Notes under the pieces: model-generated
What the model was told of the DNA's origin: nothing
Seen by the model: only the letters and a program-made list of their open reading frames with translations
Databases searched by the model: none
In this document: positions 51,303 to 59,367 of the stretch, one piece after another
Numbering within the stretch: position 1 is the first letter of the stretch
Layout of the letters: each line of letters opens with the position of its first letter
Program-made: the position numbers and the translations under genes
From: an uncultured candidate division Zixibacteria bacterium
GTDB lineage: Bacteria > Zixibacteria > MSB-5A5 > GN15 > FEB-12
Direction of reading: 5' to 3'
DNA: 64,000 nt
Assembly (NCBI GenBank): GCA_963735035.1
Contig: CAVTJJ010000004.1
Span: 1,408,001-1,472,000, forward strand

Positions 51303-52601
51303 CTACGGCTCCTCCGGCAGAATACCTTTTCTGACATATATGGGTCGGATCGCTTTGCGCAGGGCCGGGAGGCTTCTCGCAAAGAAGGCCGCGCCAATCA
51401 AGCAGGCGATACCCCCTATGAACACGGTCCACGGAGCGCCGATACGGCTCGCCATCAAGCCGGCCATCAAGCTCCCGATAGGAACCATCCCCATGAAAGC
51501 GGTGACATAGAGACTCATCACGCGACCTCGTTTGTCATCGTCGACAATCGTCTGCAACAGCGTGTTCGATGAGGCCATCTGCACCATCTGTCCGAATCCG
51601 GTGAAGAGCATCAGTGGCAGGGAAATCCAGAGGACATGCGAGAAGGCGAAAGCGGTCAAACTCAGTCCGAAAATCGCGGCGGCTATCGGAATCATACGTC
51701 CGAGTCCCAGAACCGTTTTACGCGACGCCAAATACACCGCGCCGCCCAGCGCGCCGAGCCCGACTGAGCCCATCAGGAATCCGAGCACTCTCGGTCCGCC
51801 GAGCAAAATGTCTTTGGCGAATACCGGCATTAGAACGGTATACGGCATCCCGACCAGACTTATCAAGGCCATCATCGAGAGGATCGAACGGATAGGCACA
51901 TTTCCAGCCGCGTACGCCAGGCCGTCCTTGAGTTCCTGCCAGACCTTGGGTCGATGAGATACCGCTTTCTTGACGGCGAGGCGCATCATTAATAATCCTG
52001 CGATGACAGCGATATAGCTGAGGCCGTTCAGCAGGAAACAGATGCCTTCGCCGACGACTGCTATCAGGATGCCGCCCATCGACGGCCCCAGCAGGCGGGC
52101 GCCGTTCACAATCGAGGAGTTGAGCGCGATGGCGTTGCCAATGTCGTTTTTGTCGTCGAGCATTTCGATCATGAATGTCTGGCGGGCGGGCATGTCGAAA
52201 GCGTTGACCACCCCCAGCACCGTGCCCAGGACGAGTATTTCCCAGACCGTGACCGTCTTGGTCATGACGAGCACGGCCAGGGCGAGGGCCTGAAGCATCG
52301 CTATTACCTGCATGGCGATAATCAAACGATGACGGTTCCAGCGGTCGGCGAGCACTCCGGCGAACGGTCCCAGAAACAACGTGGGGGCCTGTCCAACAAA
52401 TCCGACCACACCCAGCAGGAATTCTGAATTGGTGAGGCGGTAAATGAGCCAACCCATGGCGATACGCTGCATCCAGGTGCCGATGAGCGAGATGCTCTGG
52501 CCGATGAAGAAGAGCCGGAAGTTGCGATGGCGTAGGGCACGGATGAGCGAGCGGAAGCCGGTTTTCTCAGGCGTGCTCGATGTTTCGTTCGGTTGGGTCA
52601 T
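51303..52601 (-). CDS. MFS transporter (DUF894/H+ antiporter-like)
   Basis: RNFRLFFIGQSISLIGTWMQ, GVLADRWNR, AFDMPARQ, RGRVMS; about 12 TM helices. Confidence 0.92.
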   Translation of the reverse strand: MTQPNETSSTPEKTGFRSLIRALRHRNFRLFFIGQSISLIGTWMQRIAMGWLIYRLTNSEFLLGVVGFVGQAPTLFLGPFAGVLADRWNRHRLIIAMQVIAMLQALALAVLVMTKTVTVWEILVLGTVLGVVNAFDMPARQTFMIEMLDDKNDIGNAIALNSSIVNGARLLGPSMGGILIAVVGEGICFLLNGLSYIAVIAGLLMMRLAVKKAVSHRPKVWQELKDGLAYAAGNVPIRSILSMMALISLVGMPYTVLMPVFAKDILLGGPRVLGFLMGSVGLGALGGAVYLASRKTVLGLGRMIPIAAAIFGLSLTAFAFSHVLWISLPLMLFTGFGQMVQMASSNTLLQTIVDDDKRGRVMSLYVTAFMGMVPIGSLMAGLMASRIGAPWTVFIGGIACLIGAAFFARSLPALRKAIRPIYVRKGILPEEP

Positions 52602-52633
52602 CGGTGACAAAAAGGGCCGGCGAGATCGGAAAG

Positions 52634-53770
52634 TCAATTCTGAGTTGGAGCCAGTGGGCCGGGGTAGGGGCGGAAGAAGCTATGCATTCGAATGAAATTC
52701 TTGTCATACCGAACCGCCCAGACTTGGACGGTCTTTCGAAGATCAGATAGCGGCAGATCTTTGTCGAGATATAGTTGCATCCGATTGCGGAATCCTCGGT
52801 GGTCGGTCGCGCTGAGGAAAGGGGAGTAGTGCTCAAGGGCGAGTTCTAACGGCACGATCGTAGCTGTACGGCGCGGCGGTTTTTGCAGGATGCGATGAAG
52901 CAGGGCCTCATATCTCTCGAATATTTGTACCCCGTTCTGCGGGTGGGACTTCCTGCCTGCACCGGCAGATGTAGGCATCTGCCGGGCACGGAACTGTTCG
53001 GATTCTTGTACCCCACCCAACCGGTGGGACTTGCTGCTCGCCAGGGAAGTCGGCAGATGTGGACATCGGCCAGACACGTGAACGCAGCCACTGCATCCAC
53101 CCGACGAAAGATCCGCCTCGGCGGGCGAGGTAATAAGCCGATCCATATCGCGCACTATCCGTTGACTGTAAACACTGAATGACATCCGATGATACTCATG
53201 AAATCGTTTCAGTGATTCCGCACTGCCCCGTTTTCGAACCGCGCGCCAGGCCGCGAGAGTGAATACTTTCGTCAGAAAGTGCTCACGTATGTGCGAATCG
53301 TCCAAGCGCTCTTCATCATCAAAGGCGACGTGCGGCAGTTGTCGTATAGCGTCTGCTGCAAACAGGCCGACACCCTTCCGCACATAAGCCGCATCGGTGG
53401 CGGTCGATGCGTACAACTTCACACTCCGAAGGCCGCACGAGGGGGATTTGTGTTTCAGAATGAAACCGTCAACTTCGCCACACTGTGTCAGGAAGCGGTG
53501 TGCGAAGCTGTTCATTTTCTGCGCAAGTCGGAGGCCGGTCGATTGTTGATACAATTCCACACCCTTGGCGCGTCGCACCAGAACGATGCGATCTCGCGGC
53601 ACACCCAGGCCGATTTCCATTTCGGGGCAGACCGGAATCACACGGGCGTATGGTTTCAGCTCTTTCACGAGATCGTATCGGCACGAATCGCCATCCCAAC
53701 GGCAGCGCGCGCCGCACAGACAGCGGGAAACGACTATCGTAGGGCGTGAAAAGCGAGAGGGTTTTGTCAT
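52634..53770 (-). CDS. DUF523 (2-thiouracil desulfurase-like) + DUF1722/YbgA protein with in-frame REP-derived insert
   Basis: VSRCL, RWDG, PVCPEMEIGLGVPR, GFILKHKSPSCG, GLFA, REHF, FFRPYP; insert at ~52925-53100. Confidence 0.85.
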   Translation of the reverse strand: MTKPSRFSRPTIVVSRCLCGARCRWDGDSCRYDLVKELKPYARVIPVCPEMEIGLGVPRDRIVLVRRAKGVELYQQSTGLRLAQKMNSFAHRFLTQCGEVDGFILKHKSPSCGLRSVKLYASTATDAAYVRKGVGLFAADAIRQLPHVAFDDEERLDDSHIREHFLTKVFTLAAWRAVRKRGSAESLKRFHEYHRMSFSVYSQRIVRDMDRLITSPAEADLSSGGCSGCVHVSGRCPHLPTSLASSKSHRLGGVQESEQFRARQMPTSAGAGRKSHPQNGVQIFERYEALLHRILQKPPRRTATIVPLELALEHYSPFLSATDHRGFRNRMQLYLDKDLPLSDLRKTVQVWAVRYDKNFIRMHSFFRPYPGPLAPTQN

Positions 53771-53995
53771 GGTACCGGTCTTCGTAGAAGGCAATCTGTC
53801 GGGCGCAAGGATACGCATTTGGGAGCCTTTCGGAAAGACCCGATCCGGCTCGTGAAGCAATTAACAAGGCCTTACCTCTTTACAAACCGGCGTTGGGCGC
53901 ATATATTCCATTTCATCTGATTTGGTAGCGATCCTGATTGTTGGGACGCAACAACTTAAGCAGGACTGCCGGCCCCGCCGCAGGTCCGCGGTGAG

Positions 53996-58495: not shown

Positions 58496-59250
58496 CGTGC
58501 CCGGCAGATGTCCACATCTGCCGACGAATGTGATTGAAGCCATTTGTTGATCTTCATAGTCTTGGGTAATGCCAACTCGAACGCGCCTGCAACTTTCCGG
58601 CCCATGTCTGGTCTTCGTTACAACTACTGTCACGGGATGGATTCCGGTATTCAACGATAGAGGTATCGCCGAAAGGACGCTATACCAATTCTGCGAGGCT
58701 TTGGAGACTTATCAGGCTTCTTGCGTTGCGTTTGTGCTGATGCCATCTCATTTGCACGCGCTACTCGGTATTCGGGAGTACGCTCAGGTCCCCAAGTTCA
58801 TGCAGAGCTTCAAGATTCTCACCTCCAAGAGACTCAAATCTCACCTCAGCGCCGATATGCTTGCCCGTTTGAGTCAGGGAGGAAAATACCAGTTTTGGCA
58901 GCCTCGATACGATGAGCTTGTGATCAAGAGCGAAAAGCAATTTAGAATCAAGGCCGAGTATATCCATACCAACCCGGTCAGAGCTGGTTTGGTCGACCAA
59001 CAGACCGAATGGGTGTACTCGAGTGCAGGGGTTTGGGGCGGGAAGGGGGCTGGGATGGTGCCAATAGATCGTGATTTCACGTTTCAGAAGTAGGAGATGG
59101 CTCTGTCGCTGGCAGATGTGGACATCTGCCAGGCACATGAAAGGGCGAGCTGTGGTGCAGTTCGCTGGCAGATGTGAACATCTGCCAGGCACGTGAAAGG
59201 GCGGGGCAGTAGTACAGTTCGGCGGTAGCAGATGTGGACATCTGCCGGCG
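58496..59250. mobile_element. REPtron: RAYT gene flanked by inverted GGCAGATG-family REPs
   Basis: One REP upstream (58496-58525) and three opposite-orientation copies downstream (59110, 59166, 59227). Confidence 0.85.
58569..59093 (+). CDS. REP-associated tyrosine transposase (RAYT, Y1 HUH family)
   Basis: FVTT, FVLMPSHLH (HUH), FK..TS, FWQPRY, EYIHTNPVRAGL (catalytic Tyr), WVYSSA. Confidence 0.92.
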   Translation: MPTRTRLQLSGPCLVFVTTTVTGWIPVFNDRGIAERTLYQFCEALETYQASCVAFVLMPSHLHALLGIREYAQVPKFMQSFKILTSKRLKSHLSADMLARLSQGGKYQFWQPRYDELVIKSEKQFRIKAEYIHTNPVRAGLVDQQTEWVYSSAGVWGGKGAGMVPIDRDFTFQK

Positions 59251-59367
59251 CCTGAAAATACAAGCCAACCATCGATCATAATCGGCAGGGTTCCACCCCC
59301 GCCGTGTCCGTAGAGAAAGCACGGCAGGCATGGAGGCCTGCCGATCATATTTACTCCTGCCATACGA

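Follow-up and report, generated by a model that had tools for sequence, protein, structure and literature searches.

The window, by which we mean the whole stretch of 64,000 nucleotides that was analysed, carries the following genes and features.

51303..52637, minus strand: MFS_3 transporter gene, directly downstream of the host gene
52634..53770, minus strand: host gene, 378 aa, with an N-terminal DUF523/TudS-like half and a C-terminal DUF1722 half (a YbbK/YbgA-type fusion)
52925..53101, minus strand: in-frame insert of 177 nt in the host gene, residues 224-282 (59 aa), stop-free
58497..58524, minus strand: REP-A copy upstream of the RAYT gene, 1 mismatch
58569..59093, plus strand: gene for a REP-associated tyrosine transposase (RAYT), 174 aa, 5.5 kb from the insert
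59109..59252, plus strand: three REP-A copies downstream of the RAYT gene, at 59109, 59165 and 59225, with 2, 3 and 6 mismatches, respectively

The minus-strand open reading frame of the host gene, as called, spans 52634-53860. The start was set at the ATG at 53770, giving 378 aa, because homologs begin there (MKTATRF or MRTTTRF). Pfam recognised both halves of the protein, as PF04463 (2-thiour_desulf/DUF523; 115.2 bits versus a gathering threshold of 34.7) and PF08349 (DUF1722; 46.3 versus 22.5 bits), and the TudS structure 6Z92 matches residues 11-142 (E 2.8e-4). Comparison of 65 sequences revealed 20 invariant columns, all of which are kept by the host protein; five of these lie 3′ of the insert (Y287, W351, R354, P368 and P370). 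Three cysteines, C17, C48 and C112, do not vary among the 65 sequences and align with Cys residues of 6Z92; presumably they serve as iron-sulfur ligands of the TudS-type domain. None of the 96 codons that follow the insert is disrupted, every family-invariant residue is present, and the terminal branch of the host protein is not long (0.28 versus a median of 0.19). Judged by these features of its sequence, the host gene bears no sign of decay. If the listed TTG start of the MFS_3 gene is real, this gene overlaps the stop of the host gene by 4 nt and the two are probably co-transcribed. In two genomes of the same genus (G001 and G002, see below) only distant versions of the host gene were observed (52% and 35% identity), while the metagenome proteins include versions with 64-68%. 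Patchy inheritance, or transfer within the group, is possible for this gene.

The insert is a mosaic of short palindromic units. In the mRNA its order is unique hairpin, REP-A, REP-E, REP-A and decayed REP-E, and the units are numbered here along the plus strand.

52925..52951, plus strand: REP-E copy 1 (E1), left arm mutated and hairpin lost; read by the gene as KSHPQNGVQ
52962..52989, plus strand: REP-A copy 1 (A1), perfect 10-bp stem, 2 mismatches to the 28-nt consensus
53006..53032, plus strand: REP-E copy 2 (E2), near the family consensus, 6-pair stem in the RNA fold
53050..53077, plus strand: REP-A copy 2 (A2), differing from the 28-nt consensus at 4 positions, including one in the stem
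53078..53100, minus strand: unique hairpin, outermost in the insert on the 5′ (mRNA) side and translated as GGCSGCVHV, 10-pair stem in the RNA fold

The translation of residues 224-282 is GGCSGCVHVSGRCPHLPTS...GRKSHPQNGVQ, which begins with GGCSGC and ends with PQNGVQ; its edges were set by alignment to about 5 residues. The loop of A1, GTAGGC, is a single change from the GTGGGC loop subfamily, and the gene reads this copy in reverse orientation, frame 2, as ARQMPTSA. In the case of E2 and A2, which are read in reverse orientation, frame 0, the peptides are KSHRLGGVQ and GRCPHLP, respectively, and the loop of A2 is of the GTGGAC type. E1 and E2 form a direct repeat with 75% identity, and the two E-A units are 75-82% identical at start-to-start spacings of 81 and 88 nt. 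The REP-E pattern was matched twice in the window (52925-52951 and 53006-53032) against 0 expected. No repeat family in the genome includes the unique hairpin, for which BLAST against the genome returned only the self match over 53084-53100. The earlier note, made from the letters of the window, had described an E-A-E-A palindrome array inside this DUF523/DUF1722 gene that translates without stops as about 58 extra residues; pattern matching recovered the four units where it had placed them (52925-53077), and the count of residues is 59. It should be kept in mind that the consensus sequences of REP-A and REP-E are each devoid of stops in all six frames and that at least four of the six frames are open over the insert region, so that the missing stops say little. 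The case for translation of the insert is made solely by its multiple-of-three length and by the conserved sequence downstream.

Structure prediction was performed for the host protein by AlphaFold2 with the 65-sequence alignment (mean pLDDT 87.7, pTM 0.84). The mean pLDDT of 10-residue blocks is at least 90 over residues 11-210 and 281-370; residues 224-261, which lie between helix 203-214 and helix 278-294, have values under 50. The insert is accordingly modelled as a low-confidence loop that joins two helices of the DUF1722 half, and the fold around it is predicted to be intact. This predicted confident core with a loosely defined loop agrees with the earlier proposal, for which structure prediction had been suggested as a check, that the extra residues lie between two YbgA-domain helices.

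Orthologs of the host gene were examined for the extra segment, their alignment having been put forward in the same note as the means of delimiting the insert. A homolog is found in 28 of the 41 genomes searched (40 relatives and the own genome), and all 12 aligned orthologous ORFs from related genomes have a gap of ~57-59 columns at the insert; their loops are short and an equally long segment was not found among them. The nearest genome ortholog (52-53% identity) matches the query over residues 5-221 and 278-375, and at the DNA level these two stretches abut at bases 920/921. A collection of 5.8 billion proteins gave 2312 matches to the host protein at E ≤1e-20. The 119 other homologs among the matches listed have 233-368 aa, versus 378 here, and the closest homologs among the matches listed (64-68% identity, 316-341 aa) are gapped over the insert block. 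With the insert peptide 224-282 as the query, only the window's own protein was matched in this collection. A scan of metagenome contigs with a six-sequence alignment provided 80 loci, the best of which is 51% identical and none of which encodes the related proteins P0006-P0010 (see below). The sequencing runs listed comprised two of DNA (word shares 0.07 and 0.06) and none of RNA; searched at 80% likeness, the DNA runs yielded short contigs of relatives and REP copies, none of them bridging the insert, and no joints.

Both repeat families of the array are dispersed in the genome. Within the window, 12 sites match the REP-A pattern (22 matches when counted by strand), compared with 0 in 100 shuffles. 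Genome-wide, the 28-nt consensus gave 291 raw matches at ≤6 mismatches and 0 in the reversed sequence; merging of strand shadows left 208 sites, 195 of them at ≤4 mismatches. The conserved element is AGCC-stem-GGGCACG, its loop variants GTGGGC (92 copies) and GTGGAC (89 copies) are about equally frequent, and most copies carry 0-2 mismatches. Besides the copies listed above, six lie upstream in the window between 36708 and 48803 (36708, 38021, 40871, 43587, 43644 and 48776), all on the plus strand. REP-E has ~16 further copies in the genome, which often form mosaics with REP-A and other hairpins. REP-A neighbours within 200 nt of each other are direct in 22 of 23 pairs and inverted in one, and both A copies of the host gene are direct as well; REP-A is thus not organised as REPIN, that is in inverted doublets. 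Of the 195 REP-A copies, 7 have GTAG next to the stem and 24 have CGTC or GACG there. REP-A therefore lacks the GTAG/CGTC end tag and falls outside the tagged superfamilies of Di Nocera 2013.

The distribution of REP-A was followed across genomes with a 26-nt pattern at ≤2 mismatches, for which the backwards-pattern control gave 0. The element was found in 15 of 41 genomes searched (own included), in four families of the order. Copy numbers include 193 in the present genome, 69 and 43 in the two of its genus, and 37, 29 and 22 in genomes further removed. This spread over four families indicates that the REP-A family is old; it is patchily distributed and shared across an order.

The RAYT assignment of the gene at 58569-59093 is supported by NCBIfam NF047646 (REP_Tyr_transpos; 104.1 bits versus a cut-off of 80), by Pfam Y1_Tnp (3.3e-10) and by a match to the structure of E. 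coli TnpA_REP, 4ER8 (E 3e-7), in which YIHTNPV is aligned to YIYINPV. The translation also contains an H-L-H triplet, which together with YIHTNPV presumably represents the Y1 (HUH) transposase motifs. The REP-A copies upstream and downstream of the gene are mutually inverted around it. It had been claimed that the A copies of the array match the REPs flanking this RAYT 5.5 kb away, and REP-A does bracket a genuine member of the family. In total the genome has six Y1_Tnp genes. One other RAYT, at G000:C3:865329-865649, is bracketed by REP-A and the remaining four sit among other palindromes, each in a family of its own; none of the six could be tied to REP-E.

Other in-frame REPs were sought in the same genome, since a search for REP-coded peptides in conserved genes had also been proposed. 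Here G000 denotes the present genome and G001-G040 the related genomes, G001 and G002 being of the same genus. The genome contains 30 frames of ≥180 aa that span a REP-A with at least 50 open codons on each side. The Pfam scan covered 28 of these, leaving out the host gene and a frame antisense to the RAYT region, and found a Pfam family in six and none in 22. Two of the six, which carry GRCPHLP and RQMPTSA, respectively, are true intragenic REP cases.

G000:C4:1050201-1051598: HemW-like radical SAM gene (L043), with an in-frame mosaic of ~86 aa made of VPGRCPHLPT (REP-A) and other palindromes
G000:C3:810500-814000: AMP-binding (MenE-like) gene (L049), adjoining a MenC-like gene, with a REP-A/REP-E mosaic in frame

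The HemW-like protein matches TIGR00539 in two stretches (255 bits versus a cut-off of 205). Its insert is placed between the Radical_SAM and HemN_C parts and is absent from the orthologs in two other genera. At the identical site, the HemW-like gene of G002, a genome of the same genus, contains a palindromic insert of ~36 aa that differs from it. The MenE-like gene reads ARQMSTSA...TPPNGWD...ARQMPTSA just before the TSGSTGTPK motif and shifts frame at least two times after the mosaic; either it is a pseudogene or the assembly contains indels. Together with the host gene, these two genes contain five REP-A copies, which share one reading orientation and give GRCPHLP or RQM(P/S)TSA. The other four Pfam-positive frames, an epimerase, a thioredoxin-like protein, a urocanase and a peptidase M1, were dismissed as intragenic cases because the REP precedes the likely start codon. 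The Pfam-negative frames were also set aside, the three that were translated looking antisense (rich in arginine and histidine). The urocanase gene (L050, G000:C4:1128000-1131500) is frame-broken in its C-terminal domain: Urocanase_C matches 1-39 of 196 and the rest lies in another frame, which fits scattered indel errors in the assembly. Evidently, with breaks of frame in both the MenE-like and the urocanase genes, the base-level accuracy of the assembly is imperfect.

The loop that holds the insert was also compared across related proteins, on protein sequences alone. REP-coded 5-mers are present in three of the 119 homologs among the matches listed (P0007, P0008 and P0009), in each case in the loop of the host insert, and these three are among the five closest homologs in the matches listed. 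The loops of P0007 and P0008 read TPPNGW...THPL(G/S)GVQK, which corresponds to REP-E forward followed by REP-E reverse and hence, as judged from the peptides only, to an inverted REP-E pair. In the case of P0009, the loop contains ARQMPTSA, which matches A1 in element, orientation and frame and brings no net gain in length, and P0010 has a diverged PQMSSSA. The host protein and P0006-P0010 form one clade with support 98/98 when the loop is masked. The loop of P0006 is without REP peptides and resembles that of the outgroup P0012 (ELECVSQC versus ELECIASS). On account of this resemblance, we lean to a hot spot with repeated insertions for the host loop, and away from a single ancestral insertion.

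Taken together, the most probable reading is that a REP-A/REP-E array was copied into a surface loop of the DUF1722 half and is translated as a tolerated, disordered passenger of 59 residues. The sequence of events would be as follows. Units of two genome-wide hairpin families, the RAYT-associated REP-A and REP-E, would have been copied into a surface loop connecting two helices. The array would have grown stepwise, with new REPs landing beside old ones in the fashion of a BIME-type mosaic, and would now be read as a disordered loop of a protein that is intact in its other parts. That the reading frame could survive is explained by both REP families being stop-free in six frames and by 177 nt being a multiple of three. 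On this reading a RAYT would have moved the units, and the host protein would be produced with an insert that has no function. Nevertheless, recombination or template switching may instead have placed the units, and REP-A is without the GTAG/CGTC tag of the best-studied RAYT substrates, which speaks against placement by a RAYT. The closest available ortholog of the host gene at the DNA level is only ~52% identical.

A variant of the same explanation replaces the serial insertions by one E-A insertion followed by tandem duplication. The two E-A units are collinear with the regular spacing and the identity given above; E followed by A in the same orientation occurs at none of the other REP-E sites listed; and the neighbouring REP-A pairs elsewhere in the genome are direct in all cases except one. 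However, the units differ strongly in decay, the loops of A1 and A2 belong to different types (GTGGGC and GTGGAC), and there is little similarity outside the family consensus. Since the hairpin of E1 is lost and A2 departs from the consensus at 4 positions while A1 and E2 stay close to it, stepwise growth fits better than a single event, and we regard duplication as a rather doubtful course that still deserves serious consideration.

It could also be argued that the insertion inactivated the host gene and that we are looking at a young pseudogene in which stops have not yet accumulated. Several frames are open over the insert whether or not selection acts, and other genes of this assembly are frame-broken. 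The array itself is not young, though, with the hairpin of E1 lost and 4 of 28 positions of A2 mismatched against 0-2 in most copies. Moreover, the downstream codons and the family-invariant residues are all kept, the terminal branch is not unusually long, and the fold is confidently predicted on both sides of the insert. The proteins of relatives also hold REP-coded peptides in the same loop with their frames intact. The earlier note had named decay of the gene as an outcome that would speak against it; frame and invariant residues being intact, such decay is not what was found, and a pseudogene is very improbable.

Co-option of the insert would require a gain of function, for which two forms were considered: the Cys/His-rich stretch CSGCVHVSGRCPH may serve as an extra metal site beside the iron-sulfur enzyme domain, or the mRNA hairpins may tune the translation or decay of the host and MFS genes. 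Inside the insert, three Cys and two His do fall in a stretch of 13 residues, the hairpin of A1 is fully preserved, the insert RNA is more stably folded than shuffled versions (z = -2.64), and REP-coded segments recur in three of the five closest homologs among the matches listed. On the other hand, translation of REP-A and the unique hairpin in the frame of the gene yields these Cys and His residues by itself, and the region rich in them is predicted to be disordered (pLDDT 41-46). No peptide is conserved, as the loops of relatives have other REP peptides or none. Terminator-like sites are at chance level (3 versus 1.5 ± 1.1 expected), and a role of the insert as terminator or promoter was dropped since the scan gave no more than chance. 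Both forms of co-option strike us as very improbable. Finally, mis-joining of repeat copies into the gene during assembly, which the repetitive nature of REPs and the frame errors elsewhere might suggest, is scarcely credible given copies that are diverged and unique in detail rather than consensus, a seamless frame and flanks, and independent metagenome proteins with REP-coded peptides in the same loop.

Returning to the array as a tolerated passenger, the case hints at repeated colonisation of particular protein loops. We tentatively put forward that a REP-tolerating loop might act as a heritable landing pad, in which REP families keep inserting, decaying and being replaced. Such a reading is compatible with the REP peptides in one loop of the six-protein clade and with the HemW-like site, which differs between same-genus genomes. 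If this holds, REP-RAYT systems would produce loops whose sequence is specific to a lineage and whose position in conserved proteins is fixed. There is also a warning for annotation and for structure and domain prediction, as extra loops in conserved genes may be repeat-derived.

Several known systems invite comparison. The REP-RAYT system, or REPtron, and the REPIN were reportedly described by Nunvar in 2010 and by Bertels and Rainey in 2011. As in the REPtron (E. coli TnpA_REP, PDB 4ER8), a single-copy Y1 transposase gene is placed here between inverted copies of a high-copy hairpin repeat. Unlike REPIN doublets, REP-A occurs mostly as singletons or direct neighbours, and unlike the REPtron, two RAYT genes share the REP-A family. 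BIMEs are extragenic and of alternating orientation. The array resembles them in that several REP types are clustered with regular spacing, and it departs from them in having four units of one orientation inside a reading frame. Rickettsia palindromic elements are said to have been found in frame in conserved genes by Ogata et al. in 2000. The likeness to our case is close: palindromic repeats in frame in a conserved gene, tolerated at a surface position and giving a lineage-specific protein segment. RPE-1 units are longer single elements, whereas here a mosaic of short REP hairpins is found in a genome with six Y1-transposase genes.

BIME-type REP mosaics are mentioned in the portion of PMC2817692 considered here, and in-frame repeat fusions, including Rickettsia palindromic elements, are reviewed by Delihas 2011 in the corresponding portion of PMC3184786. 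The closest precedent is the work of Di Nocera, De Gregorio and Rocco (2013, BMC Genomics 14:522; PMC3733652), which was also the only paper found by a literature search on REPIN, RAYT and intragenic. According to the sections of it that were consulted, REPs lie inside genes of several species, often as dimers or groups, with inserts coding 20-30 residues and clusters coding 43-82; they are argued to be neutral owing to their loop or linker positions, and RAYTs are proposed as the mobilisers (PMC3733652). The earlier note had seen an advance over Rickettsia palindromic elements in that a candidate mobilising enzyme is identifiable. Such a candidate does exist here, although, as the same sections make clear, the idea is already published (PMC3733652). 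The class of event and the RAYT link are thus in print, and the understanding of REPs and RAYTs is unchanged. Zixibacteria, the host phylum, is not among the species named for intragenic REPs in those sections (PMC3733652), and the literature on palindromic repeats in Zixibacteria, judging by title and abstract, contained nothing on REPs. The present locus would add a clear-cut case in which selfish hairpin DNA, in several units, is read as protein; the phylum has received little study, and a likely transposase is close by. Like the intragenic REPs described in the consulted sections of PMC3733652, the units stand grouped and in frame in a conserved gene. They differ from them in that REP-A is without the GTAG/CGTC tag by which these sections define two superfamilies, and in that two REP families are mixed in one four-unit array.
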